Assembly (NCBI RefSeq): GCF_038025025.1
Contig: NW_027117338.1
Coordinates: forward strand, 2,294,001-2,358,000
Reading direction: 5' to 3'
DNA: 64,000 nt
DNA from: Phyllosticta citribraziliensis
Taxonomy: Eukaryota
A program made the translations under genes and the position numbers. The notes beneath the pieces were generated by a model. It made no database searches, was not told the origin of the DNA, and saw nothing but the letters and a program-made list of their open reading frames with translations. Of the stretch, positions 29,482 to 50,519 are shown piece after piece (position 1 is the first letter of the stretch; every line of letters begins with the position of its first letter).

Positions 29482-31099
29482 ATGGCCAGCAACAGCGACA
29501 TCAGAAACAAGCCGGAGACGCGTCTTTTCATCAACGGCAAGGTAGTGACCCGGAAGACTTTCCAGGACGTCACTAACATCCTGTCAGTTTGTCGAGTCGT
29601 CAGACAAACAGACCTTCCGACTCGTTTCTCCTTCAACACGGGAGCTGATTGCCGAAGGTAAGATGCGCCAAGCCTTGAAAAGCGTTCATCGTTGAATTTC
29701 CTTGCAGTTTCCGAAGCAAGTGCTCAGGATGTCAATACTGCCGTAGCAGCTGCAAAAGCTGCTCAACCCGCTTGGGCTGCACTTTCTCCGCCTGAACGAG
29801 GAGCTTGCTTGCGAAAATTCGGAGATCTCATGCGCGAGAACATGAAAGAGTTGGCCACTCTCGAGGCCATCAGCATGGGGCGCCCGGTCAGAGACTACAT
29901 CGATGTCTACGTCGGAGCTAGGCTGTGGGACTGGTTTTCAGAGGCTGGCTGGGCTATACAAGGATCAACAAGTCTCAATAATCCTGGGATGGTGGGCATG
30001 ACCCTACTACAACCATATGGCGTTGCTGCTGGTATCATCCCCTGGAATGCTCCCATGATTTTCTTCTCGTCCAAGGCAGCTCCTGCTCTGGCATGTGGAA
30101 ACTCGATCATCATCAAGAGCAGTGAAAAGGCGCCTCTGACAGTAAGACGCTTTCCGTTTAATGCCTGCTACTACCTTACTGACAAATCCCCAGTCCGCAT
30201 TCCTGGCGACACTTATCGAGAAGTCAGGATTTCCTCCTGGTGTCTTCAACATTCTCTCTGGACATGGTACCGTCTCTGGTGCCACCTTGGCCTCTCACAT
30301 GGACGTTCGAACGCTTTCTTTCACAGGATCAACTGCAACTGGACGTGCAATCTCCATCGCCGCGGCCAAGTCCAACCTCAAGAACTTGCACCTCGAGCTT
30401 GGTGGTAAATCCCCTGCGGTAGTATTCGAAGACGCAGACCTGGAGGCAGCTGCTGCCACAACTCAGTTCGGAATTGGTTGGAACGCCGGTCAGATTTGTA
30501 TGGGCAATTCTCGCATCTACGTTCAAGACACCGTCGCGGAAAAGTTTGTCAACCTCTTCAAAGAAAAATGGGGCAGTGTCAGAATGGGCAATCCTCTCGA
30601 TCCAGAGGTTGGGCTGGGTCCTGTCGCAGACTCACTGCAGTACGAGAAAGTCAACAAGTACATTGAAATCGGCAAGTCATCAGGGGCCAAAGTGGTTCTT
30701 GGTGGCGACAAGCCCACACAAAGCAATCAGCTGGGCGACGGCTACTACGTGCCAGCGACGATTTTTGGAGAAATTCCGGAGGATTCCAAGACAATGAAAG
30801 AGGAGGTGTTTGGGCCTGTTGTTTGTATAAACACATTCAAAACAGAGGAGGAGGTCATCGAGAAGGCAAACGACACAGAGTACGGCCTCTACGCCGCCGT
30901 TTTTACGACAAACCACGCCAGAGCCCTCCGAGTCGCCAAGGCTATTCAAGCTGGGACTGTCGGAATCAACTGTTCGGCCCCGACCAACTTGCCTGACCTG
31001 CCATTTGGTGGCTTCAAGTCATCAGGCGTTGGCAGGGAAGGCATGATACACAGCATGAGGAACTACTTGGAAGAGAAGTCGGTCATGACCAAGCTTTGA
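29482..31099 (+). CDS. Aldehyde dehydrogenase (NAD+), multi-exon
   Basis: RLFINGK, IIPWNAP, KSSEKAPLT, SFTGS, catalytic Glu LELGGKSP, catalytic Cys NAGQICMG, EEVFGPV, PFGGFKSSGVGRE. Confidence 0.93.
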
Positions 31100-31896
31100 G
31101 CGGACGCTGTCAAATGATGTTTTGCTTCTGTTTTAAATCCGCTCGATTTGGTAAGCGTGCTGAATACATGTACTTAGAGAACACTTCTGTTTGTAGATTG
31201 AATCGGATGCCTCGCAGTTTCTCATGAAGACCCTTGCGAACGCAACCGGCGCAACAATTCTCACCCAGTCGCTTTATCAATCACGCTTAGAGTCGGACTG
31301 TCGGATCCCCAAGTTAAACAGCGTCACGCTTGGCCCCAGCGAGATCGTCATTTACGGGACCTACAGGTTTCAATCAACCCCGCTGCGATTGGCGGAAGAG
31401 AAGATAAAGTGTGCGGGAGGATCCTCCTTGGCGTGTCTACCGGAAATCCTTCGACCCGGGGACCGATGCGAAAGCGAGATCTCAGAGAACTGAATCCAAA
31501 CTTGGCACTAAGACAAAGGCTTGCACGTGGAAACACGAGCTCATGGAAGATGCAGACCGATATCCGCGTGGCCTTGACAGGGTAGGGGCGGAGACAGTTT
31601 GACTGTGCCGTTGTTCCCCTGCATGGACGCAAGACGGAACCGCATCCGGCAGCGCTAACTGGCGCCCAGTGACGGAGGCACTAATTATCAAAGCATGCAG
31701 AGCAGTGGACCGCTGAGTTGCCCCAAGTGGATCCGCACAGACCATGCGACTGCATGAGTACTTCGCTTCAGTAGGCATCAAGTCCACCTCACACAAGACC
31801 CGCAGAAGTGGGGTCTGACGACTAGTCTGCGACCAATTCTTAAGGGCGTGTTTCTCAGCAGTCTCACGACAGTCTGCTGTTGCATCCTCGCCCAAC

Positions 31897-33697
31897 ATGA
31901 CCAGCCAGCCTTTACTTGCGTCCGGAGCCGCGGCGCTCGCAGGAGTGTTTACTTGGGCGTCATACTTCCACAAGGGAGAGCATCATCTCTATCCGTTGAG
32001 ATATGCTCGAATTTTCATCGCTTCGTTTCTACTGGGAACATTTGTCCTGGCAAAATTTGACCAAGTCAGCTACAGCAATGCCGCAACATACATGGCCACC
32101 ATTGCCGCAAGCTTTCTGGCCGGGATATTCACATCTCTCATTACATGGCGATTATTTTTCTCTCCATTGAACAGGTTTCCTGGTCCCTTCATGGCAAGGC
32201 TCTCGTCGTTCTGGATGGCGTTTCACGTTGGTAAGTCTGAGGCTTACAAGTTGGTCACCAAGCTCCACCAGGAACACGGCGACTTTGTAAGAGTCGGCTC
32301 CAACGACGTTTCCATTCTCAACCCCGACGCTGTCCCTTTGATCTACGGCTTCGGCACCAAGTGTGGCAAGGCAACATGGTATGACAACGATTACCCGCTC
32401 GCCTCGATGCACTCATCTCGCAACCGCCAATATCATGATGCGCGCCGGCGCCTCTGGAGCATTTCGTTCAGTGACAAGGCACTTCGTGGATATGAGCCTC
32501 GAGTGCAGAGGTACACATCCAGTCTGGTCCGACAGCTGTCTGCCTTTTCGGGACGGCCTGTGGACGCCACGAAATGGTTCGCCTTCTTCGCTTACGACGT
32601 CATGGGAGAGCTGGCCTTTGGAAAATCTTTTGGCACCCTCGAAAAGGGTCAGGAGCACTTTGCTATTACGCTGTTGGGCGAAGGCCTGCAGGGTTTGGCC
32701 TTTCTATGTGCGCATCCCGTCCTTTCATGTCGACCTATGGTCTTGCTAATGGTCGAACAGTGCCAACCTGGTTTTTCAGATGCTTGACAAACACCCCATT
32801 GGCAGCGTCGTACTGGCGCTTCATTCAATATTGTACCGCTCAGCTTGAGGAGCGTGTGAAGAACCAACCAGAAGTCCCTGACATTATGAGTCCTCTAATC
32901 GATCAGTTCTCTGGCAAGGAAATATCTGACGTGGAGAACGCTCGCCTCCAAGGCGACTCGCGGCTGATAATTGTTGCGGGAAGGTATGCAATCCTCCCAG
33001 AGCTCTTGTGCTCGCTTCAAAATCTCTGTCCCCGAAATCTCACAAATCGACGCTAGTGACACCACATCCGCAACCCTCACCCACGCCATGTACCACCTCG
33101 CCCTTGAGCCCCATCACATGGACAAGCTCCGCGAGGAAATCACTCCCAAAGTCCAACCCGACGGCTCAATCAATCACCGCGACATCCAAGACCTCCCGCA
33201 CCTGAATGGCGTCATCAACGAGGCGTTGCGGCTTCATCCAGCAGTGCCCACCGCGCTGCAGCGAGTTACGCCACCCGAAGGCATCGAGATTAACGGCACG
33301 TACATTCCCGGCGAGACAACCGTGTGGTGCCCTCAATGGGCACTCGGGCGCAGCGAGAAGGTGTATGCCGAGCCGAATCGATTCCTGCCCGAGCGATGGT
33401 ATGCGAAGAAGGAGATGGTCAAGAAGGAAAAGGCATTCTTCCCTTTTAGCACTGGTAAGTTTATCCCTTCGTTCCCTGAAATGTGTTCTCACAAATACAG
33501 GTGTGTATGGATGCATAGGCAAACCTTTAGCGCTCATGGAGCTCCGTCTCGTCATCGCAAAGCTCCTTATGGCCTTTGATATAACGTTCGCGCCGGGCGA
33601 GACTGGCGATGACTTGTTGAACAGGACGCGTGATCACTTTACGATTGAGTGTGGAGAGCTTCATTTGGTGTTCAAGGAGAGAACTGCCGCTTCATGA
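31897..33697 (+). CDS. Cytochrome P450 monooxygenase (4 exons)
   Basis: N-terminal TM, FPGP hinge, I-helix AGSDTT (spliced), EALR, PERW, heme motif FPFSTGVYGCIG. Introns 32708-32760, ~32983-33056, 33454-33500. Confidence 0.92.
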
Positions 33698-36980: not shown

Positions 36981-37828
36981 CTAATGCAAATGGTCTTCGT
37001 CTCTCTGCTCCTCCTCATCATCGCTGTCGCTCACTTCTTCCCAGCCCGCCAGTCTCCTCAAGAGCTTGTTTTCAGCCTTGAGTTCCTTGATTTTTCGTTC
37101 GTGCGGCAGGCTTGCCTCGGAGCTTTCTTTCAACGCAGCCCGAGCGAATTGAGCAGCGCGCCCCAAACCTGCCTGCCATTCCTGATGCTCCAACCTGAGC
37201 TCCAGATTTTGCTGCCGTTCCTTCTCCAACAGAGTATTATAATGAGAGTGCAAAGCGAGGATGGCTTGCTCGTGTCGAAAGGTGAATGGTCGCAATTTTT
37301 CGAGAATCGCGGTGACGGAGGATTCGTAGTCTGATACGAGGCCTTGCAATGCGGAATTTTGCGATTCGAGAGAGGAGATTTTGCTTTGCGCGGCCTGAAG
37401 TTGGGTGCGAAGGGAGTTTATTTCTGCGAGTTGGGCGCGGTTGTTGGCAGCAGAAATATCGCCGTTCACTTGGGCGACGGTGGGTGGGGATCCATCTTGG
37501 GCGGCGCGAGCCTGTCCGAGGAATCGTTAGAATCTTGGACAGAGGATTGTTCAGGTTCAGCACATGCCTGTATTTGCTGCACGCTGTTCATGATATTGGC
37601 CGTCTGACTTCTATTCTCGGCGAGCACGTCGGACAGCTGCTGGACAACCTGCCACAAGTGGTTCATGTCGGTTTGGTGTCCTCCGCTCAGAAGACCGTTG
37701 ACGAGATTGGGCATGCCGCCGGAGCCGTTTGGTTGGTGGCCCGGGCCCGGCGATGGAGATTGTCGAGGAAGCGAGTTTGCCATGACGTTGTTGTTCGGGG
37801 AGTCGATATAGTGCGGAGGCTGATTCAT
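36981..37828 (-). CDS. Coiled-coil protein, probable SIKE/FGFR1OP2-like STRIPAK adaptor (SCI1/SipB-type); exons 37828-37568 and 37511-36981, ~263 aa
   Basis: Helical N-terminus DMNHLWQVVQQLSDVLAENR. QNSALQGLVSDYESSVTAILEKLR and IKELKAENKLLRRL resemble SIKE-family coiled coils (recalled similarity, not searched). A 56-nt GC-AG intron joins the two frames. Confidence 0.65.
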
Positions 37829-40800
37829 AATCCTTCGCACAGCGTTGGCGTTGACAAAGTCGACGTCGGGTGGATGTTGTGTTCCCGCGCGGGAGAGGAG
37901 GGGGGTCAAGCGACGAAGGACGAGGTCGTCATCGGACGACAGGAAGAAGTCTCTCTGGTGGGAAGCAAAAGGTAGAGCCCGGCTGGGAAGGGTCGTGGAG
38001 CGCTCGCTCCTGCTGTGGGATGCGGAGGAGGAAGAGGTTGTTGTTGGTCGTCTTGGACGTCGGAGGCGCGAACGACGTGGGCTGGCACCGCGGCCTGGGG
38101 GGTCCGAGCGCTGGTCCGCGGCCCGCTGTGGTCGCTCCTGGGCCCGTGCGTCCCGTTCGGCTTCAGAGGGCGATGTGCCTTTTTTGCCGCTCTCCTCCGC
38201 TTCGGATGACGACGCTCCCTCGGCCTCTGCAGATGGTCCAGAGTCGCGCTTGGCCGGTGGCTGTCCTGATTCTGCTGATCCGACCTCTTGCGCCGACTCG
38301 CTCACTTCGGGCTGCGTCTGCTCTTCCTTTGACACATCCTCAATGTGCTCCACATTGGAAGAACTCGGCTCTCCCACATCTTCAACGTACTGCACATCAG
38401 GCGAGTCGGAACGTGGAAAGTCTGGTCGGGGGTCCAAAATACTTCCCGTAAGTCCAACTCGGAAGGCCGTCTGTACCGAAGTATCAGAGGCCGCATCGTC
38501 GTCTCCGACTCGGAAAGCTGTCAGCACTGAACGATCAGAAGTTGCATCATCGGAGCTCCCTGCGTGCGCTTCACCGTCGCTTTCTCCCGTCCCATCTCCT
38601 TGGTCGGTCGACTTGGATGCACCCTCGGACTGACCCGACTTTTTCCTGAACGGATCGGAGAATAGTGCAGGCTTCCCCGCCGGCGTCTTGATTGGAGTCA
38701 TCCTGAGCTCCGGTGGCAGCGGTGGTAGGCCCGAGTCTGGGACACTGCTTCTAGGCGAGACGGTGTCGCCTTGAGATTTCTTTCTTTCCTTTTCCTCCCG
38801 TGCGGCGATACTTTTGGCGACCCATTCTATGATGCCGCGACTTTTCCTTCCCTCCGTTTTCCGCATTTCCCTTGCCGGTTCACCTCCCTTGCCGGTGGAT
38901 TTGACGCCGTCGCCCCCTTTGGCCATGGTCGCTTGTTCCTGATTGTGATCTCTTTCCGTGGCGGCCGTAAATCTCTCTGCCCTGCGTGTCCAGACTCTGT
39001 CCTTCAGCCTATGAATACTCCAGTCAAGCATCCAATCAGCTATTTTGGGACTCGGATCAGGATCATCCACGTCAACCTGGGGACTCTCCTTTTGGCCAGA
39101 TGACCTTGAAGCTACGGCGATGGACTGAGCTTGGTCTGGCGTCGCTGGATGGCTGGTTCCAGCTGTCAAATCCATAACAGGCCTCATCATATGGAGACTC
39201 AAATCAGGATTGTCCCGAAAGTTCTCTTGAATGGGCTTCGGCTTCGGCGGAATCGATCGGAACGTTCTCAACTTTTCGGCCAACCTCATCTTCGTCATCT
39301 TCTGGTACTCACTGCGCGTCCATGGATCTCTCATTTGACGCATCAGAAAGTCAACGACGCCCTCAGGGATGTCTCCGACCTCGCGAGCTGTCTTCTGAAT
39401 ATGAGCCCGCAGCTGCTTAAGTTTTGACTCCGAAGGAATGTCGGTAGACCAAAGACCGAGATGCCGTGGACTCCTTTCTTCCGCTGCATAGACAGGGGCG
39501 AAGCCGTCATCGGATTTCTCATCAAAACCAAAGTCGAACGGGGTAGTACTAGTACTACCAGCTGTCGAGGTGGCTTCGCTTGCAGTCACAGGTCCCTTGA
39601 CGATTGTCGTGCCTGGAAGAATTTGCTGATCAACAACGTGGCTTGACTCTGTTGATGTTGCGGTAGTTCCAACAGCTGGCTCTGCAGCGGTCGTCGACAA
39701 AGGATCTGCAGATGTAGATGAATCCTGAGAAGCATCGGCAGCGATGTCATCTTCGACCGTTGCTCGTCTCTTCCCGTCGCGCGCCTCGCGAAGGGCACGA
39801 CGGTGGGCCTCGTCCTCGAGAGTGGTGGGCAGCTCCTCATCTTCGTCATTCGCGCCATCCATTCCAAGACCCCAGTTATCTTGCTTCCAGTTGGAGGTAT
39901 CCGCGTCCTGTGTAACAGTGTCGCGTTCCATGCGCTCTTTTCGACGCGCCTCTTCTTGCTCAGGCGTCGTATAGAGCTCTTCAGGATCATCGTCGCCGTC
40001 TTGCGGCTTGCCTGTACCCCAGTAGTCCTTTCGCTGCAACAGCGCAGAGTCAGGATCTGGGATTGCGGTCTGGTCTGGAAAGGCAGGTCTCTCGTCTCCG
40101 GAGGCCGAACCATGGTCACTAGCCTCTGGTGTCGGGAAAGGTTCGTCGCTGTCTTCGCTAAAGGCATCGTCAAACGGATTGGCTGCAGACTCACGAGAAG
40201 GCCTAGATCCAGAGGGGAACGAGGGCAGCTTGGCGTCACCAGGATCAGAATTCGGACTGGACGATGCGCTGGTGTAGTCCTCATTGGAATCCTCTGACTG
40301 GCCTGTCGTTTGTCGCCACTTTCGATTGGCCTCGTCTGTCTGCGTCGTACCGCCAACGTTGAGCGCAGTCTTTGCGCGTCGAGCTCCAAAGAGGCGCTCG
40401 TTCAGCTCCGTATCGCTGCCCTCAACTTCTTCTTCACGAAGAAACGCGCTGGACTTTTGCATCATTCGAAGCGCAGAGTCGCGCGCCGCTTCGCGCTCGG
40501 CACGCTCATCTTCACTCTCGGGGCGATCAGGATCCTCTTCATCGCTTGAGTCAAGATAGCCGGCGAGCTCAGTCCGAGTGATTGCATCCAGCCAAAGTTC
40601 ATCCTCAGATTGAGCTCGGTCTGGTGTTTCGACTTCGTCGTCGGAGAGGAACCTGACAATTTCAGCCCGTCGAATTGCTGTGAAAAATAGCTCGTCCAGC
40701 ATCTCGCACTCTTTGTCGTCAAATTCGAGTCCCTCGGCACTGGAGCTGCCAATACCACTGACACTGTTACGCGGTGGAAGTGAGGGAGGTGAATGAAGTT

Positions 40801-43800
40801 GCTCTGACCTAGAATCCCCCTTGGTAACGTCTTTACGCTGTTTGTCGGCTTCTCCTGTCGCCTCGACCCGTGGATTGGCTTCCTGGCCCGTGCCTTTGTT
40901 CCCAAAGTGCATGGAAGACCTGTGCATCTTGTCTGATGGCTCCTTTCCAGTCTCCTTGTTGGGTTTAACGGTCTCTGTCGATGAATCTGATGACCTCGAC
41001 GATCCTGATGAGCTTGTGCGTTTCAAAACGCCCCTTCTCGGGCTACTCGTCGTCGATGACGGACTTATTGGCTGGCTCGGATCGCGAACCTCTTCTGGCG
41101 GCTCGTCGAACAAAAATTCGCGGTGTTCTGTTTCGGCGCGGAACGAAACTCTTTGGCCAGCTCCAGCAGGCTGAGGATTCGTTACGATGGGGGTCAATGG
41201 GGTAAGCGGCGGTCCACTTCGAAGAGTAGGATCACGCAGACGTCGAGATGGACTCGGAAAGTTGATGTCACTTTTACTGCGGCGCCGACTGCCTGCTTCG
41301 ACGAGAGTATCAGAGCTTGATGCACTGTACGTGGGCGGAAGGTCGTCGTTTGGATTGCAGTCTCGAGGACTGTCGCTCAAGCTGGTCGATGAGCTTCGTC
41401 GCAGAGGTAAAGATGGACTTGGAGGACCTGTGAGTGCGGAGGAAATAGAAGAAGCGGGCGTTGCAGCTTGTTGAACAGCAGATTCTTGCTGTGGCGAAGG
41501 CTGCGGGCCACCAGTGTCATCCAGATTCGGAGTGGTGTCTTCAGCATCAAAATCGCCGTCCAAGGGCGCGTCCAGCGCATCTTGTACTGAGACGGACTCC
41601 TCTGTTGAGCTAGCCCTTCTCTCGCTCGAAGACCGTTGAGTGGTAGTACCGGGAGCGCCGTCCAACGGTGCGGGTGAGTTTGCGGTAACGGTCCTTGATA
41701 GCGCACCATCGTCACCCCTTGACTGACGTGTGTCGTTCCCAACTTCGCCGCCATCGTCACGAGCTGATTGTCCCGTGAAAGAAAAGACATTGAGCCGGTT
41801 GTTGTCAGCCTTCTTCCTGTTCCACACCGCATTCTTGCCCAGCAAGTACCGGAGAAACTCCTCGTTGGTTGCGTGAGGCAAACACTTGACGCACAGTTTG
41901 TGGCCACGACAGCACTTCACTCGACCGCGAGATGAGTCAACCATTGGCCGTTTTGATCGTAGGAGCGAGACCTCATTCGTCAATCCGGCTCCGTTGCCAA
42001 ACGTCGAAAACGACCCCTTCGAGCGCCGCTCAAGGAACCATTGAGGCGGCCCATCGTCTTGCTTCTCTGACGGACAGAGCCATCCACTTTCCAGCTTGTT
42101 AGCGCCGCTCGTACTGGATGTATGGCCACTCCCCAAGTCCAGCGATCTTCCCCGCACCGACAGTCTTGGTTCGACCAGTTCTGTCGAAACATCAAAATAG
42201 TCGCGCGGGAAAATTGCCAAATGAAGTTGAAGTTGACCACGACTAGAGGCGCCTCCGCGTCCGCTCCCACTGGGTTGAGAGGAACCAGCATTGCCGGGTC
42301 CACTCGGTGGCTGACTGCGTCTGCTACGGTGAGAAGGACCAGGACTAGGTGGAAGTGGACTCCGACCACTAGGATTTTCAGGTACACTCCGTTGTCGATC
42401 ACGTGCTGGCTGAGGGTTTGCTGGACCAGGAACGGCGGAACGAGAGGGATTGCCCAGAGAGCCAGCTCTAGAACCAGCGGCAGACGGCGCCCTTACAGAG
42501 CCGGGACGGCTTGTGTGGTGCCTGGCGGGGTATTGAGAACCAGCTGTGGAAGCTCCCGGAGACTGGGCAACAGGTCGTGGGATGCCACTCGGTCTGGAAA
42601 GCCTTGATTGCTGTGAATGTACCGAAGGGGCAGGACCATTGTGACCACTGCTTGGTCCAACAGGTCTGTCAACTGGCTGAGTTCCATCCTGACCACCACT
42701 TGGTCCAACAGGTCTGTCAGTAGGCTGAGCTCCACCCGGACCATCACTCGGTCTAACAGGTTTTTCAGTAGGCTGAGTTCCTCCCTGACCACCACTTGGT
42801 CTAACAGGTCTGCCGACTGGCCGAGTTCCAGGTTGAGCACCGCCTGGCCCACCATTTCGAAAAGCTGGATGATTTCCAATAGTGTCGAAGCCATCCAAAG
42901 TATTTGGATTCGTGGCCCTAGGCGGATCTGACGCAGGGGGAGGTGCTGTCTGAAGCAGCAAACTCGATCTTTCGATATCAGTGTTGGGACGAGGATCTCG
43001 AGGCTGTCGTCTGAGAGCGGTCAAGATCCGTCTTGCCAAATCTCGACCGCTCCGACGTTGTTGGCTGCCGCGTCTTGCTGGACTTGGAGACTTTTGAACG
43101 GCTCCAGAACGATCGTTTCTGTTTTCGCCCCTCAAGCGTTGCACCAATCGCCGGAGCCGAGATGGCCTTTGCCTTGGTACCGCGGGGCTCGGACGGCGGT
43201 GAGCCGTCTCGCGTCTCGATGCCCTGGGTGGGTGGGTGATCGGTGCGTGACTTCTTGGACGATCAGCTCTATCATTCCGCCTCAAATTATCAGGCTCGTC
43301 TCGCGTTCGTCGTTCAGGAGGACGTTCTCTGTCTTGCCTTTCAGGGCGTCCTCTGTTCTGCCTTTCAGGGCGTGGAGTTGGAGTCCGAGGATTCATGAAA
43401 AAACGATTGTCTCTTTCTGGTTGGTTCGGATCCTGTGGAAGCCATGGCCATGGTAGCCCTCCTTGTGGTTGATCTCCCTCATTTCTGGGCCTTGGCCTCG
43501 ACCGAGGCTCGGAAGGGCCTGCACTTTGACGGTATCCATCAGAGTCATGATTACCATCGCCGCCGTGGTTGTTTTCTCGAGCGTACCCGCCTTGTGTGCC
43601 GCGTTCGTAATTTTGGCCGTTGTGGTGATTTATATCGAAGTACCCGCTTTGTTGACCAGACTCATCCTGGTTGCGGCGGTGATCTTGTTCGGTGTAACCG
43701 CCTTGTTGACTACGGTCATTTCGATTCTCGTTACCATCACGAGGCAATCTCCACGAAGCGCCTGCGCTTGTCGAGCTCTGAGATAAGCTATTGGGTTGAG

Positions 43801-45187
43801 GAATCTGAGGCTGGTGCGGAGGCGGATCTCTGTTCTCAGGGGGGCTGCCTGGAGGGGAAACTCTAGCTGCAAGCCGAGCCTGACGCTCCGCCGCGATTCT
43901 CCTCCTCCACGCGGTATCACGCGGCGGTTTGCCCCAGCCCTCTGAAGAGCTCCTGGAGCGTGAAGGGTCGCGAATGTCCGCTCGTAGAGGGAAAATGTGT
44001 GGAGGCCACGGTGTAAAAGTGGACGGTGGTTCTGCTTCCGCTGCTTGCTCTTGAACATCGGCTTGATCGTAATCTTCAAAGTACCCAAGTCCATCGACAA
44101 GCTCTTCTTCTGGCGGAGGTGGTTCAGGTTGTCCAAAATGGAGAGACGGTCTTGGACGGTGCGCTTGTAGAGGATGATTGCTCCGCGATCGGTCCCGAGC
44201 CCACATCTGGCGTGCTTCTGAAGGCGTAATTTCATGCTGCGTGCTGGCTGGCCTCGCTTGACGGCGTGCTTGACCTCGAGTAAGTTCCAAATGTCGATCG
44301 ATCCACGGTCCAGTGGAGTACAAGGGTACGCCTTGACGAACGTAGAGTTGAGTGGTTCCATATGCGTAAAGAGTCTCTTCTCTGCTTGTATGGGCTGGGG
44401 TTCGATCACGATGTCCAACCAAACGGCTCCCGTGGTTCCTTGTCGAACTCCGCACTCCAGACGGGGCGCTGTGTCTGATGCTGTGAAGCCCCGAGCTCGC
44501 TCCAGACCGGTCTTGACGCCTGTTGCCAACCACAGGCGGATGAACGATCAATTCAGACGTCGACCCTGCTCTTGGGCTGTATTGCTGTGGGGTCCTATGG
44601 TTAATTAAAGAGGGTTGGTTAGACGGACCAGCTACCGGGCGGTTTTGACCCTGAGGCCCGTTGCCGGTGGTAGCAGTACGGGGAGCGACGTTGACCCGAC
44701 CAGTTTGTTGGTGTTGTTGCGGAGCAGCGCCGTGGTCAGTCCCAGCTGGTCCAGGAGCAAGATTGGACGGACCAGCTTCTGGTTGGTTTTGATGTTGCCC
44801 GAAGCCAGTATCAGTTTCAACAGCGACAAGGGTGTTTGTGAACAGACCCGTTTCTGGATCGTAACGCGTTTGAAAACTGGGCATCATCACAGGTGGGAGT
44901 TGAGCCATGTTAGCCTGAACAGTTATCGGATGGATTTGCCCACGACCCCAGCCGATCTCAACTGGGCGTTCAACAATGTTGGCCAGACGAGGTCTTGGTC
45001 GAGCAAGATCAGGCGGTCCAATTCTGCGCGTCAATTGCCCCTGTAGCCCCCGGGGAACTTGAGGTGCCGCTGCTGCCGGAACTCCTGCATCCCCATGTCC
45101 CAGGACCCATCGTGCCACACTGGAGGGCTCATTCCCGCGAGGGTAGGATTCGAGCTGCATTCGGCCGAGCGTCATGCCCTGACCCAC
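37466..45187 (-). CDS. Very large, mostly low-complexity/disordered hypothetical protein ORF (2573 codons), in frame with the SIKE-like gene at its 3' end
   Basis: 7.7 kb stop-free frame; P/S/R/G/Q-rich N-terminal half, acidic C-terminal half; internal frame-preserving repeats; no recognisable domain. Confidence 0.7.
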   Translation of the reverse strand: MGQGMTLGRMQLESYPRGNEPSSVARWVLGHGDAGVPAAAAPQVPRGLQGQLTRRIGPPDLARPRPRLANIVERPVEIGWGRGQIHPITVQANMAQLPPVMMPSFQTRYDPETGLFTNTLVAVETDTGFGQHQNQPEAGPSNLAPGPAGTDHGAAPQQHQQTGRVNVAPRTATTGNGPQGQNRPVAGPSNQPSLINHRTPQQYSPRAGSTSELIVHPPVVGNRRQDRSGASSGLHSIRHSAPSGVRSSTRNHGSRLVGHRDRTPAHTSREETLYAYGTTQLYVRQGVPLYSTGPWIDRHLELTRGQARRQARPASTQHEITPSEARQMWARDRSRSNHPLQAHRPRPSLHFGQPEPPPPEEELVDGLGYFEDYDQADVQEQAAEAEPPSTFTPWPPHIFPLRADIRDPSRSRSSSEGWGKPPRDTAWRRRIAAERQARLAARVSPPGSPPENRDPPPHQPQIPQPNSLSQSSTSAGASWRLPRDGNENRNDRSQQGGYTEQDHRRNQDESGQQSGYFDINHHNGQNYERGTQGGYARENNHGGDGNHDSDGYRQSAGPSEPRSRPRPRNEGDQPQGGLPWPWLPQDPNQPERDNRFFMNPRTPTPRPERQNRGRPERQDRERPPERRTRDEPDNLRRNDRADRPRSHAPITHPPRASRRETAHRRPSPAVPRQRPSRLRRLVQRLRGENRNDRSGAVQKSPSPARRGSQQRRSGRDLARRILTALRRQPRDPRPNTDIERSSLLLQTAPPPASDPPRATNPNTLDGFDTIGNHPAFRNGGPGGAQPGTRPVGRPVRPSGGQGGTQPTEKPVRPSDGPGGAQPTDRPVGPSGGQDGTQPVDRPVGPSSGHNGPAPSVHSQQSRLSRPSGIPRPVAQSPGASTAGSQYPARHHTSRPGSVRAPSAAGSRAGSLGNPSRSAVPGPANPQPARDRQRSVPENPSGRSPLPPSPGPSHRSRRSQPPSGPGNAGSSQPSGSGRGGASSRGQLQLHLAIFPRDYFDVSTELVEPRLSVRGRSLDLGSGHTSSTSGANKLESGWLCPSEKQDDGPPQWFLERRSKGSFSTFGNGAGLTNEVSLLRSKRPMVDSSRGRVKCCRGHKLCVKCLPHATNEEFLRYLLGKNAVWNRKKADNNRLNVFSFTGQSARDDGGEVGNDTRQSRGDDGALSRTVTANSPAPLDGAPGTTTQRSSSERRASSTEESVSVQDALDAPLDGDFDAEDTTPNLDDTGGPQPSPQQESAVQQAATPASSISSALTGPPSPSLPLRRSSSTSLSDSPRDCNPNDDLPPTYSASSSDTLVEAGSRRRSKSDINFPSPSRRLRDPTLRSGPPLTPLTPIVTNPQPAGAGQRVSFRAETEHREFLFDEPPEEVRDPSQPISPSSTTSSPRRGVLKRTSSSGSSRSSDSSTETVKPNKETGKEPSDKMHRSSMHFGNKGTGQEANPRVEATGEADKQRKDVTKGDSRSEQLHSPPSLPPRNSVSGIGSSSAEGLEFDDKECEMLDELFFTAIRRAEIVRFLSDDEVETPDRAQSEDELWLDAITRTELAGYLDSSDEEDPDRPESEDERAEREAARDSALRMMQKSSAFLREEEVEGSDTELNERLFGARRAKTALNVGGTTQTDEANRKWRQTTGQSEDSNEDYTSASSSPNSDPGDAKLPSFPSGSRPSRESAANPFDDAFSEDSDEPFPTPEASDHGSASGDERPAFPDQTAIPDPDSALLQRKDYWGTGKPQDGDDDPEELYTTPEQEEARRKERMERDTVTQDADTSNWKQDNWGLGMDGANDEDEELPTTLEDEAHRRALREARDGKRRATVEDDIAADASQDSSTSADPLSTTAAEPAVGTTATSTESSHVVDQQILPGTTIVKGPVTASEATSTAGSTSTTPFDFGFDEKSDDGFAPVYAAEERSPRHLGLWSTDIPSESKLKQLRAHIQKTAREVGDIPEGVVDFLMRQMRDPWTRSEYQKMTKMRLAEKLRTFRSIPPKPKPIQENFRDNPDLSLHMMRPVMDLTAGTSHPATPDQAQSIAVASRSSGQKESPQVDVDDPDPSPKIADWMLDWSIHRLKDRVWTRRAERFTAATERDHNQEQATMAKGGDGVKSTGKGGEPAREMRKTEGRKSRGIIEWVAKSIAAREEKERKKSQGDTVSPRSSVPDSGLPPLPPELRMTPIKTPAGKPALFSDPFRKKSGQSEGASKSTDQGDGTGESDGEAHAGSSDDATSDRSVLTAFRVGDDDAASDTSVQTAFRVGLTGSILDPRPDFPRSDSPDVQYVEDVGEPSSSNVEHIEDVSKEEQTQPEVSESAQEVGSAESGQPPAKRDSGPSAEAEGASSSEAEESGKKGTSPSEAERDARAQERPQRAADQRSDPPGRGASPRRSRLRRPRRPTTTSSSSASHSRSERSTTLPSRALPFASHQRDFFLSSDDDLVLRRLTPLLSRAGTQHPPDVDFVNANAVRRIMNQPPHYIDSPNNNVMANSLPRQSPSPGPGHQPNGSGGMPNLVNGLLSGGHQTDMNHLWQVVQQLSDVLAENRSQTANIMNSVQQIQACAEPEQSSVQDSNDSSDRLAPPKMDPHPPSPK
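38454..38552 (-). repeat. Two-copy 51-nt coding repeat (DxxSDxSVxTAFRVG)
   Basis: DDATSDRSVLTAFRVG followed by DDDAASDTSVQTAFRVG. Confidence 0.75.
42643..42832 (-). repeat. About four copies of a 48-nt (16-aa) coding tandem repeat, GGQDGTQPxDRPVGPS-type
   Basis: cttggtccaacaggtctgtc...gaccacca unit recurs every 48 nt. Confidence 0.85.
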
Positions 45188-45340
45188 TGGTAATGGAGAA
45201 ACGGTCGCCCTACTGTGAGGGTAAAGGGTAGAGATACTTGGACTCGAAGCGTGTCGGCTGCTACAAGCCGGTGCCGAGTTGTTGCTTGTTCCAACCCGAG
45301 TCCAAGGCCGAGCTTCGCTTCCAATGTTTCTGTGTGGTTG

Positions 45341-46618
45341 CTAGCCACGTTCTGGTATGTCCGCCAAACTGCCAAGCCTTCGGGGGATACCTTGCCAGCC
45401 AAGAGTAGGAAGACCCGTCATGGGATAGACAAATTCGGGGACGTTTGAGGTTTGTGGAACCAAGATGGGGTCGAAATCGGGGAACGGGACTCTGCCTGGC
45501 TCCGGTTCTGAGGCTGTTCGTCTACGCGTTCGCACAGGGCGCGCATGTTGTCGAACAGAGCGAAGGAATACGGAATACACGTTTGTCGGGTCATGGAAGT
45601 ACATTGGCCCAATTTTTTCGAGCGGATCTTTGACTTCCTGTGCCTCTTTGACTGCCTTGCCAGAAGTTTTAATGTCCAGCGAAGTTCTTCTGGAACGAAT
45701 CCAAGGCAAATCGTAGACAGGGGTGTCGTGGCGATCATCAATTGCTGGAGAATTGGGAGATCGATCACATTTGGGAGAAAGACTTCGGGTTCCATATGGA
45801 GCAGGCACTGGAGAGCCAGCACTGTTTACCTCTGGGCCAGCAGTCCAGTAAGCATCATCGTGTCTGTCGGCTGGAATATACTCATAAAGGTAGATCCGAT
45901 TTCCGTGGCCGTCTCTCTGTCCTATTTCGTCGAGGTTGAGAAATAGTCGTCCGCAACGAGGGTGAAAGAAAGAGCTGTAGCGAGGGTGCCTATCAGGGGT
46001 GGCGAGATCTCGCAGATTGTCTCCCAGCATCGGGATCGAGTCATCGGAATGACCGGCCGGTAAGTTGGGGTAAAGTGGATTATATTTGGGCGCGTCGGCG
46101 GTATCCTGAGAATCCTCGAAATCGTAAGGTCTTTGGCCACCAATGCCTGCTGGAAATACGGTGAGATTTTCCGGGCGAGAAGGATTCGTCAAGGCCAGAA
46201 GCTCCGAAGTCCTGTCCTGGGCCGCAGGAGCCTTGCCATCCAACAGATCAAGCAGTCTCTGCAGCAAACCTGGAAGTGGTTTCTTGGAAGGGTTTTCGCT
46301 GGATCCACTGCTAGATCGAAAGACGTGAGTCTTTTTCAAAGGAGGGTTTGAGTGGCTGGGTGCCGTGCGGACGGGCCGTCTGGGTCTTGTACAAGCCGGG
46401 TGTTGGAAAGAGGTGAGTGAGTGCGCATCGAAGCCGGCCTCAATTTCTCGTGCGCCAGGCGTGAAAGCCGGAGGAGACGCTCGAGACCTGGAAACGTGGC
46501 AACCAGCGTGCTGCCCTGTTGCGGTCTCTCGGCGACGGCTTCTCACAGACGAGACAAGAGTGCGACGGTAGTAAGGACCGCAGGGGTCTTGAGAACACCG
46601 CCTGCGTGGCCTTGCCAT
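45341..46618 (-). CDS. Hypothetical protein ORF (first ATG 46618), in frame with the downstream 2573-codon ORF and separated from it by one TAG
   Basis: 448-codon ORF in the track. The spacing from 45343 to 45187 is 156 nt and the intervening codons contain no stop. Confidence 0.55.
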   Translation of the reverse strand: MARPRRRCSQDPCGPYYRRTLVSSVRSRRRETATGQHAGCHVSRSRASPPAFTPGAREIEAGFDAHSLTSFQHPACTRPRRPVRTAPSHSNPPLKKTHVFRSSSGSSENPSKKPLPGLLQRLLDLLDGKAPAAQDRTSELLALTNPSRPENLTVFPAGIGGQRPYDFEDSQDTADAPKYNPLYPNLPAGHSDDSIPMLGDNLRDLATPDRHPRYSSFFHPRCGRLFLNLDEIGQRDGHGNRIYLYEYIPADRHDDAYWTAGPEVNSAGSPVPAPYGTRSLSPKCDRSPNSPAIDDRHDTPVYDLPWIRSRRTSLDIKTSGKAVKEAQEVKDPLEKIGPMYFHDPTNVYSVFLRSVRQHARPVRTRRRTASEPEPGRVPFPDFDPILVPQTSNVPEFVYPMTGLPTLGWQGIPRRLGSLADIPERG

Positions 46619-47374
46619 TGCGGAGGTGCGTCGAGCCTGGTGGTTCTGAAGATGAAAGGGCTCGACCAAAGAGCGTCGTGTTGACAAGGTGGATGAGAAT
46701 TAAAGTGGAAGTGGTGGTGATGATGGTGGAATGAATATGTAAGCTTGCTTGCTTGTTGTTGATTTCCAGGTGAGTGAAATGGTAAGACTGCCTGGGAGAG
46801 TGGAGATGTTATTCGTCGTAAACGATGACAATGTTGGGTATAATGCGATGAGGGATCGTGGATCTGAGATCGATCTGGGACTGGAACTCCACGCGATGAA
46901 CCGCTGGGAGGCGCGGAGCTCCCTCCTGGCCGAGCGACATCGTCGCTTCCTGATGTTGTAGCGTTTTCCGTGGCGACGGCGTGATGTTGGCAGGCTTTGA
47001 AGAAGGACACGTCGGACAGATCATGAGTTCCACGGTGGTTTCCTTGCAAGATTTCCAACAAGCAGAGATGCAAGGAAGGAAGAAATTCGTACGCAAGATG
47101 CACCTGGACATGGAGCCAACCAGTACCGAAAGTCGGGGTTCTCTGCAGCAGGATTGTGCTTGAGGGAGCCGTGGCGCAAAGCGCGTTCGAGGCCAAACTT
47201 TGACTCTTGTCGGAAGTGCAGGTGAAATGTGCTGTGGCGGCGACATGGTGCACGCCGTGGTAGTAGCAGTGGTAAACAGGCAGACGACATCACCCACCAA
47301 CCACCAGGCGCCAGAACCACCAAACCTCTGCAAGTTAAAGTCTCCACAATTCGCCTTCCTTCCATCAACAAAAA

Positions 47375-47935: not shown

Positions 47936-50519
47936 CTAAATCTCAACGGCAACACTGCCCCTCAGATCTCTAGAGCTGCTACCCACGGAAAACGTGTATG
48001 TGCCCTTGGCCAGCGCCCACTCCTTGGCCGCCGTGTCCCAGTGGCTGATATCCTTGCGGCGCACCTCGAACGTGACGGTGCTCTTGGCGCCCTTGTCGAG
48101 AGGCACCTTCTCGAAGCCGCGCAGCTGCCTCACCGGCTGGTTGGCGGCGGCCGGGTACGAGACGTAGAGCTGGGCGACTTCGGCGCCGGAGCGCGAGCCG
48201 GTGTTGGTCAGCGTTGTGGTGATGGTCAGGACGGTGTCGAAAAGGTCGGTCTGTGGATTTGTTTGTTAGTCATAGATTTGTTTGATGCCTGCATGAGATA
48301 CTGACCTTGCCACCAATAGCAATGGGTCCGCTGGGGTACGTCGCGCTCAGTGCCGTCTCGTTCGTCTTCTTGGCCGTCACATCACCGTACTCAAACGTCG
48401 TGTACGAAAGGCCGTGGCCGAAGGGGTAGCGCGGCGTGACGTTGAAGCGGTCAAAGTGGCGGTAGTCAATGTAGACGCCCTCGTCAAAGTCGCACTGTGC
48501 CGTGTAGCAAAGTTTGACCGGGTAGTCGCTCTCGTTCTTTGCAAGGGTGCTGATCAGCTTGCCGCTAGGGTTGACGTCGCCGTAAAGGACGTCGGCAATG
48601 GCGTTACCGCTCTCCTGGCCCAGCATGCCGCCGTAAAGCACAGCCGTCACATTTTCAAGCTCAATCCAGGCGTCAACGAGGCGAGGTCCGACAGTGTTGA
48701 TAACAACGACAGTGTTGTTGCACTCGGAGGCGACCGACTGGACGAGCGTGTCTTGGTCGGTGTTGTACAGCTCTTCCCTGTCAGCACCCTCGCCGGAGAA
48801 TGAGTTCAGGAAGACGAGGCAGACTTCAGAGTCCTCTGCATAATTGGTGATGGAGGGCGTAACTGCTGTGCCTTGGCCGAGGTTGGAGAGCGCATTGCCG
48901 CCGCCTCCGCCACCTCCCCTGGAGGCTCCGGACCCGCTGCTCGTGCTGCTGGAGCTAGAGTTGCTGGATCCGCTGGGACCCCCAGTGCCTCCAGTGGTGG
49001 GTGGCGAGCCCATGCCCATACCAGAAGAAGAGGAAGAAGTGTACGTGTCGTTGAGGATCCAGCGAATCATGCTGCCATCGGCAGCAGCCCGCGTCGTGAG
49101 ACTCTGGTAAGGAGTAATGAGGTAGGAGAAGGAGAGTTGACCGCTGCCGCTGCCCGATGCCAAGTGGCCCTGGTACGTAGGACCGCTCGACCCTTGGACA
49201 CTGAATGCCTGGTTGGGGCCGGCCATGGCAGGGCCAGCATGAGCACCAAACACGCTGATGGACTTGGGGCGATCCAAGGGAAGACCGCCGCCGTTTGTGG
49301 CGTTATTCTTCAGAAGGACAAGAGACGCGGCGCTGACCTCGCGGATCAGAGCCGAGTGGTTGGAGCGGACATCGCGGTAGTCGGTCGAGCCGGCCTCAGA
49401 GGGTTGCTTGCCGTTGTCCAGTCCGACATAGTAGTATCCAATGACGTTGCGGATGGCCATGTCGTCGAGACGCGCCTGGGTGAAGGAGCCGTTGCTAATG
49501 CCAGCCTCCAAAATCGTTGACGTCCAGAGAGAGCTTGATCCGTAGTCCAGGCCAGCGTTAGCTGAGCCGTAAGAGGTCGATTGCGAGTTTACGTCTGGGA
49601 AGACCATGCCGGGGAAGCCAAGCTCCTCCTTGAGAAGTTCAGAGACAATGTGGCTGTTTTCGCACGACTGCGAGTTGTTCACCCGGGACATGGCGCACAT
49701 GACAGCGGCCATGCCTGCCTTCACACCGTCCTGGAACGGCCAGAGGTAGAGTTCATGGATAGTCTATGTGGGTCAGTTTCCTTGCTGTCAGCTCAAAGGG
49801 GCTAGGATATACCTTATCATCAGCGTTGGACGAATACACCGAGGACGTCGAGTCCGACGTGCCAGTGGATCTGTTCGTCTCCTGCTCATTGAGCAGAAAG
49901 TGCCTACCGCCTGCAACGACGCCAGCTGAGTTCATTCCACCAATGGTTTTGGCCAGGGCAACGCCGCTAAGGTACGGGTCAGGCGAGAAAGCTTCTGATT
50001 GGCGACCGCCCCACGGGGTGCGACCAAGAGGCCCAGCCTCGGGACCGTTGATCAGGTTGTAGCCCATGAGATAAAACTCACGACCCGAAGCTTTGGCCTC
50101 GGCTTCAAAGTAGTCTTTGTCCCAGGTCATGGCCAAGGCATTGCCCATGGGGAAACCAGAGACGTAGTATTGGTAGTTGATTCCAGCAAAGCCATCCTTG
50201 TTGGCAAGAGCTGTCCAAGAGGAGCCATTGGTCGAGTCGACATCGCTGCCGGTAATTATGGAAACCTTTTGCGCGTTGGTCAGTCCAGACACAAAGGCTT
50301 TGGCTTTCGCATAAGCTTCAGCAAAGTCGCCGAGATCCTGAACTGTTCGTCAAAACAATTAGCCATCAAGCAAAGTGTGCAACCTCGGCCGACTCCCAGT
50401 TCAGGGCCAGGGCACATACCATGTCCAGATGACAGAATGGCCGCGTTGGACGAGTTTGATGCTGCACTCACGCCGCAAAACAGCGTCGAGGCAAGACCGA
50501 AAGCTGCCGCAGCTTTCAT
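47936..50519 (-). CDS. Secreted glycoside hydrolase family 3 beta-glucosidase (BglD-like) with FnIII domain, 4 exons
   Basis: Signal peptide, GPLGRTPWGGR, DPYLSG, HFLLNEQE, LLKEELGFPGMVFPD (nucleophile Asp), GQESGNAIADVLYGDVNPSGKL, PFGHGLSYT, QLRGFEKV. Confidence 0.93.

Follow-up and report, generated by a model that had tools for sequence, protein, structure and literature searches.

A retained in-frame UAG in a leaky-stop context within a conserved 3,000-codon frame of Phyllosticta citribraziliensis is a credible candidate for recoding

In Drosophila, kelch and headcase are cellular genes in which a stop codon stands between a short default product and a much longer isoform. A viral counterpart is type I readthrough, as in the replicase of tobacco mosaic virus (TMV), where the UAG is followed by CAR-YYA; two papers describe CARYYA as a driver of UAG readthrough in plants as well as in mammalian cells, and the similar CARNBA as one in yeast (PMC3542737, PMC4132726). 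Here we describe a locus of the fungus Phyllosticta citribraziliensis at which a single in-frame TAG, followed directly by CAACCA, divides a minus-strand reading frame of some 3,000 codons. It lies in a window of 64,000 nucleotides (nt), the whole stretch of DNA that was analysed (NCBI RefSeq assembly GCF_038025025.1, contig NW_027117338.1, positions 2,294,001 to 2,358,000 of the forward strand), and all coordinates below are positions in this window. The locus resembles the TMV replicase in carrying a UAG with the exact CAR-YYA context and an extension far longer than the default product, and differs from it in being a cellular fungal gene, not a virus, with an extension of ~2,600 codons known from sequence alone. 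Like kelch and headcase it would be a cellular gene with a stop between a short default and a much longer isoform; those genes, however, belong to animals, have other stop codons and contexts, and were shown experimentally to be read through. On the evidence below, we consider the retained UAG a credible candidate for recoding.

The second group of related systems involves adenosine-to-inosine (A-to-I) editing of mRNA. In Fusarium graminearum, editing by Tad2/Tad3 corrects premature stops (CHE1, PUK1 and AMD1; 71 'pseudogenes'), according to one report (PMC10776026). Two further papers describe the preferences of fungal editing by adenosine deaminases acting on tRNA (ADAT): a U at -1, a G or A at both +1 and +3, and a place in a hairpin loop. 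A review among them reports genome-wide mRNA editing from Sordariomycetes and one Pezizomycete only, gives it as not found in Aspergillus nidulans and Botrytis cinerea, and leaves its occurrence elsewhere undetermined (PMC11156358, PMC11169179). The CHE1 paper attributes separate annotations of N-terminal-only and C-terminal-only proteins to an artefact of a conserved, edited premature stop (PMC11156358, PMC11169179). Our locus resembles CHE1 in that a U precedes the A of an in-frame UAG placed in a hairpin loop, in the conservation of the stop, and in having relatives annotated as N-terminal-only or C-terminal-only proteins. It differs in that CHE1 carries zinc fingers, whereas the downstream part here has no recognisable domain, and in that the host, a Phyllosticta, belongs to the Dothideomycetes, a class without reported mRNA editing, and not to the Sordariomycetes.

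The minus strand around the stop reads ...GAA CGT GGC TAG CAA CCA CAC AGA..., with the TAG at 45343-45341. A first-pass annotation of this DNA had proposed that 46618-37466 forms one minus-strand frame with a lone in-frame TAG, and frame-by-frame stop counts confirmed this. The frame that bears the TAG has one stop in 3,077 codons, and because the other two minus-strand frames have 51 and 151 stops and the plus-strand frames 62, 105 and 80, its openness is far above chance. Upstream of the TAG the frame is open from 46699 to 45344, which amounts to 452 codons between stops, or to 425 when counted from the first ATG (46618); downstream it is open from 45340 to 37469 (2,624 codons), ending at a TGA at 37468-37466. 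The lengths of 448 and 2573 codons originally proposed refer to these same open reading frames (ORFs), but the figures depend on the choice of start. Fifteen single-stop junctions with at least 120 open codons on either side were found in the 64-kb window, and the TAG junction (452/2624 codons) was by far the largest of them, the runner-up having flanks of 122 and 527 codons.

The two ORFs flanking the TAG are also alike in composition. Their GC contents at the three codon positions (GC1/2/3) were 0.60/0.54/0.50 for the upstream ORF and 0.63/0.57/0.50 for the downstream ORF. The third-position values of both, ~0.50, lie below the 0.57-0.76 of ten other ORFs in the window, so that an unusual base composition is common to both. 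No intergenic space separates the TAG from the coding sequence that follows, in contrast to 1.5 kb ahead of the ATG. In our view, the retained in-frame UAG inside this conserved frame of 3,000 codons is a genuine and non-trivial feature of the locus.

We used protein models of related fungi to ask for the age of the stop. P0001, a 425-amino acid (aa) hypothetical protein of Phyllosticta citrichinensis, is 92% identical to the upstream ORF, and its C-terminus, ...DIPERG, ends at the same residue (G425) as the ORF in the window; retention of the stop in P. citrichinensis was thus read from the end of this protein model, i.e. from the stop position. A second relative, P0002 (386 aa), is 45% identical to the upstream ORF and ends ~10 residues earlier in the alignment, and the N-terminus MARPRRRCSQDP is invariant in the ORF and both relatives (3/3). 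The end shared with P0001 rules out a sequencing error and an allele private to one strain, two explanations that the first-pass annotation had raised, and judged by this protein comparison the stop is old. The conserved gene models in relatives likewise support its proposal of a default 425-aa product. An entry in the ESM Atlas matches the 425-aa sequence of the window letter for letter, and its model has a predicted local distance difference test (pLDDT) score of 0.32, because of which we regard the 425-aa protein as predicted to be disordered. An ESM Atlas search with the 425-aa protein gave no family lead (top score 0.84), no Pfam family was found on the upstream or the downstream ORF, and of 95 pattern matches obtained when metagenomes were scanned for relatives of the 425-aa protein, not one was confirmed.

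The exact CARYYA context claimed for the stop was borne out, the sequence being TAG CAA CCA at 45343-45335, and CAACCA fits the yeast CARNBA as well. We surveyed every TAG trinucleotide in the window, 765 on the two strands together, and CARYYA directly followed only one of them, the TAG at 45343-45341. The frequency of CARYYA per position was 0.0018-0.0021, and 14 of 3,049 in-frame codon pairs in the giant ORF matched it, giving a chance rate of 0.002-0.005 for CARYYA after a TAG.

RNA folding placed the stop in a small hairpin with a minimum free energy of -4.2 kcal/mol, which was the same in folds of 31, 61 and 101 nt. The A of the UAG occupies loop position 3 and the U position 2, which is the U33-A34 geometry of an anticodon loop, and the loop C-U-A-G-C-A-A puts AGC in the anticodon position; tRNA-Ala(AGC) is a natural ADAT substrate. 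All of the described editing preferences are present at the TAG, its A lying in a hairpin loop with a U before it (-1), a G directly after it (+1) and an A at +3. Loop geometry of this 7-nt type was found at 9 of the 765 TAGs, and together with a stem of at least 4 base pairs (bp) at 4 of them. The stability of the hairpin is unremarkable (z = -1.23; 29 of 200 shuffles folded as well), and the A lies in some hairpin loop at 418 of the 765 TAGs (55%), so loop membership alone is uninformative. No match was found with Rfam over 44800-45900, and ARAGORN found no tRNA gene in the window.

We compared the locus with contigs from several runs. X3 is RNA-like and identical to the window, X4 and X5 come from divergent relatives, and X11 covers 9 of 30 bins, none of them at the TAG. 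The differences listed comprise 40 of 422 substitutions and 12 of 15 insertions or deletions (indels), and the counts given here cover these. X4 holds two forms of the locus (44300-46750), ~3% and ~14% divergent; these occur at different depths and therefore represent two related fungi or haplotypes in one sample. In the ~14%-divergent form, indel clusters of 6 nt in the upstream ORF and of 9 and 12 nt downstream are in frame. The net 9-nt cluster, at residues 567-570 between the TAG and M571, is the only listed indel in the stretch separating the stop from that methionine, which we refer to as the spacer. An indel cluster upstream of the ATG in the same form has a net length of -1. Substitutions were 2 synonymous and 7 non-synonymous in the upstream ORF, 7 and 5 in the spacer (residues 427-570), and 7 and 12 over residues 575-762. 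Across 37469-46618, ~60% of the substitutions listed are non-synonymous; the frame is fast-evolving, with low codon bias, yet stop-free.

The X5 contig (3,675 nt) crosses the TAG and shows 125 differences in 2,343 nt (~5%) with no gaps. At ~5% divergence a dead frame of 7.9 kb would be expected to have gained stops or frameshifts; this one has none, which indicates that the downstream frame is still translated in some way. The upstream end of the X5 contig, at 46642, lies 24 nt 5' of the ATG, and we did not use this end as evidence, because the type of the run is a guess. The contig runs for >2.3 kb through the TAG, and if X5 were RNA it would represent a single transcript spanning the stop. 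None of the runs listed is recorded as RNA. X3 behaves like RNA-seq, because its contigs are identical to the window, are short with adapter ends and include one spliced joint.

Beyond the stop, the first ATG codons in the frame are M482 (45175), M487 (45160) and M571 (44908), which leaves an open spacer of 55 codons to M482 and of 144 codons to M571. In a Markov simulation, open runs of these lengths had chances of 0.22-0.25 and 0.02-0.03, respectively; multiplied by 1/3 for the shared frame, these become ~0.08 and ~0.01. Among the proteins related to the downstream frame, P0003 (902 aa), from a distant relative, is 42% identical to it and begins 4 residues ahead of the conserved motif QLPPVMMPSFQ; the hypothetical protein P0005 of P. 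capitalensis (2,446 aa) has 41% identity over query residues 1465-3022 and begins further in. Gene models in relatives are accordingly either N-terminal-only (P0001, P0002) or C-terminal-only (P0003, P0005), a pattern that fits an annotation artefact at an edited stop and two real genes equally. The giant frame contains a 48-nt tandem repeat at 42642-42830 (3.9 copies, 80% match) that encodes 16-residue G/P/Q-rich units, and P0003 carries a related yet different repeat (GEGPSGTQP...). P0004, a light-harvesting polyprotein, was rejected as a relative, its match being due to repeat sequence.

We tentatively propose, at a likelihood short of even, that 46618-37469 (minus strand) forms a single translational unit, in which codon 426 is a retained, leaky UAG subject to context-driven readthrough. 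Most ribosomes would stop at the UAG and yield the conserved 425-aa disordered protein. A minority might decode the UAG with a near-cognate tRNA, aided by the CAA-CCA 3' of the stop as in the TMV-type (type I) signal, and these ribosomes would continue for ~2,600 codons through a disordered region to a coiled-coil end resembling SIKE. We counted in favor of one unit the lone stop, the lack of a usable intron, the age of the stop, the CARYYA context, the indels in multiples of three, the shared GC content and the lack of a gap between the ORFs; readthrough would account together for the frame, for the retention of the stop, for the exact CARYYA and for the missing gap. That ribosomes may pass the UAG, the route by which they would do so, and a conditional product of >3,000 aa are what we infer from these sequence features.

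Several observations weigh against this proposal. No protein spanning the TAG was found in the two large protein collections searched, and we know of no fungal cellular gene with a readthrough extension of such size. The GGC 5' of the stop is not of the type known to favor yeast readthrough. M571 has the strong context AACATGG and lies 2 residues ahead of the conserved QLPPVMMPSFQ motif, which fits an independent start, and an open in-frame spacer as short as that to M482 is expected by chance at ~0.08. The substitution test has little power because constraint is weak in all regions. The X3 contigs flank the TAG on both sides and leave a coverage gap at 45148-45365.

Two alternatives carry very little weight. 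If the TAG lay in a spliceosomal intron that is spliced out, the frame would be continuous in the mature mRNA, and the first-pass annotation had pointed to a weak GTATCC donor at 45390 for such an event. We enumerated all GT/GC..AG pairs of 40-400 nt that contain the TAG. The GTATCC donor is present and pairs in frame with the AG at 45313 (78 nt), but this donor has no G at +5, and the pairing would rely on an AAG acceptor and lacks a CTRAY branch site; with the AG at 45330 the intron would be 61 nt, which is not a multiple of 3. No GTRAGY-type donor was found within 400 nt of the TAG, and no CTRAY branch site was found in the in-frame pairs shorter than 384 nt. Similarity to P0002 reaches residue 400 (45419), so that a donor could lie only in the last 76 nt before the TAG, where the donors are all poor ones. 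None of the contigs crossing the site, one from X5 and two from X4, has a splice joint across the TAG, and the only joint in the aligned contigs is a plus-strand, antisense one. We found no usable intron, and this explanation is barely credible. Only slightly more weight, and still very little, goes to reading the TAG as a sequencing error, as a nonsense allele private to the strain or as a mark of pseudogene decay. One nonsense codon within a long frame does resemble a fresh mutation, and the low GC3 and weak constraint would suit a gene in decay; however, P. citrichinensis has its stop at the same residue, the Atlas holds the 425-aa sequence letter for letter, and despite ~5% divergence from the X5 relative the 7.9-kb frame is free of stops and frameshifts.

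The remaining alternatives carry more weight. The TAG might simply end a 425-aa gene, the giant protein being made from an internal promoter and its own ATG (M482, M487 or M571), either as two cistrons or as the outcome of an old gene fission. This is in line with the relatives' models, which are N-terminal-only (425 and 386 aa) or C-terminal-only (902 and 2,446 aa) with none spanning the stop, with M571 standing near the motif where P0003 starts, and with the chance of 0.22-0.25 for a 55-codon open spacer; moreover, had a nonsense mutation split one ancestral gene, the shared frame would need no coincidence. On the other hand, both the CARYYA context and the anticodon-like hairpin (4-9 of 765 TAGs) would have arisen by chance, a start at M571 leaves the improbable 144-codon spacer and its shared frame to be explained, the one listed spacer indel of the ~14%-divergent relative has a length divisible by 3, and a terminator and a promoter would have no room. 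An orthologous stop in P0002 would make the split old, in which case a spacer that is not translated should have decayed; the pattern of N-terminal-only and C-terminal-only models was, in the CHE1 paper, an artefact. We consider two genes somewhat less likely than readthrough, and well worth keeping in view. Less likely than this is that Tad2/Tad3 (ADAT) edits the A at 45342, perhaps in a stage-specific manner, so that UIG is read as UGG (Trp) and the >3,000-aa frame is opened. The idea of A-to-I recoding put forward in the first pass held in part, in that the hairpin and the base preferences at -1, +1 and +3 fit those described for fungi, but the host is a Dothideomycete, and our literature searches found no report of A-to-I mRNA editing in that class. 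The loop geometry with its 4-bp stem is rare and has AGC at the anticodon position, and a conserved premature stop with split models is the pattern described for CHE1; against this, loop membership is uninformative and the hairpin weak, the RNA-like X3 contigs do not cover the site, and editing would leave the exact CARYYA to coincidence. Readthrough and editing are compatible, and we put the probability of recoding by the two taken together at a little over one half. A more elaborate version, a two-key switch in which ADAT editing in a Dothideomycete and readthrough would both turn the 425-aa protein into one of >3,000 aa with a STRIPAK-type SIKE coiled coil, seems to us quite improbable.

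The SIKE/FGFR1OP2 family includes fungal SCI1 of the STRIPAK complex, and known fungal SIKE members are small proteins. At our locus, the end of the giant frame leads over a putative intron into a coiled coil that matches PF05769 (SIKE) at borderline strength (24.0 bits, just under the gathering cut-off of 24.3, with E = 4e-5 when only exon 2 is searched), so that the frame would not end in a terminus of its own, and a PDB search with this exon returned generic coiled coils only. The last 72 codons before the putative intron are near-identical to the C-terminal end of P0005 up to ...QQIQ and divergent after it, and P. capitalensis has the same in-frame arrangement despite 41% identity elsewhere. 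This common arrangement suggests that the giant region may be an N-terminal extension of a SIKE-like, STRIPAK-type protein. The difference from known family members is that here and in P0005 the SIKE-like segment lies in frame behind >2,400 codons. The features of the locus are collected in Table 1.

Table 1. Features at and around the in-frame TAG (window coordinates).
Feature	Position	Strand	Basis
Upstream 425-codon ORF, conserved, predicted disordered	45344..46618	-	ATG at 46618; matches P0001 and P0002
In-frame TAG, codon 426	45341..45343	-	Sequence read; P0001 ends at same residue, G425
CAACCA hexanucleotide, directly 3' of TAG	45335..45340	-	Fits CARYYA and yeast CARNBA
Hairpin GUGG[CUAGCAA]CCAC, 4-bp stem, 7-nt loop	45334..45348	-	RNA folding
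Open in-frame stretch of 144 codons, TAG to M571	44909..45340	-	ATGs M482, M487, M571
Downstream 2,624-codon frame, low-complexity, predicted disordered	37469..45340	-	TGA at 37468-37466; no Pfam family
End of giant frame, exon-1-like part of SIKE-like gene (MANSLPRQ...VQQIQ), 72 codons	37568..37783	-	Comparison with P0005
Putative 56-nt GC-AG intron (GCATGT...CTAAC...ACAG)	37512..37567	-	Suggested by sequence reading
SIKE-like coiled-coil exon 2	36984..37511	-	PF05769 match; stop at 36983-36981
Intron of antisense transcript, 46 nt, GT..AG	45848..45893	+	X3 contig (depth 2.5) joins 45847 to 45894

The antisense intron lies inside the upstream ORF and has, on the plus strand, the donor GTAAGC and the acceptor TAG; no Pfam family was found on the plus-strand ORF around it (45512-45943). 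Among the neighboring genes, a GH3 glycosidase gene (48270-50349, minus strand) lies 1.5 kb upstream of the ATG, a cytochrome P450 gene (34812-36324, plus strand) is convergent with the SIKE-like gene, and an aldehyde dehydrogenase gene and a second P450 gene occupy 30146-32784 on the plus strand.

The meaning of the locus depends on how the UAG is treated. If it separates two cistrons, its context misleads and the gene boundary is an ordinary one. If ribosomes pass it, no longer extension past a stop codon would, to our knowledge, have been proposed for a cellular gene of a fungus, and the locus would be a clean natural case of CARYYA outside viruses. If passage occurs by A-to-I editing, restorative mRNA editing would be extended to a class whose status is given as undetermined in the review. 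Either way, the conserved frame is broken up in the gene models of Phyllosticta into unrelated "hypothetical proteins", and its in-frame connection with a coiled coil of the SIKE-like, STRIPAK type goes unnoticed.

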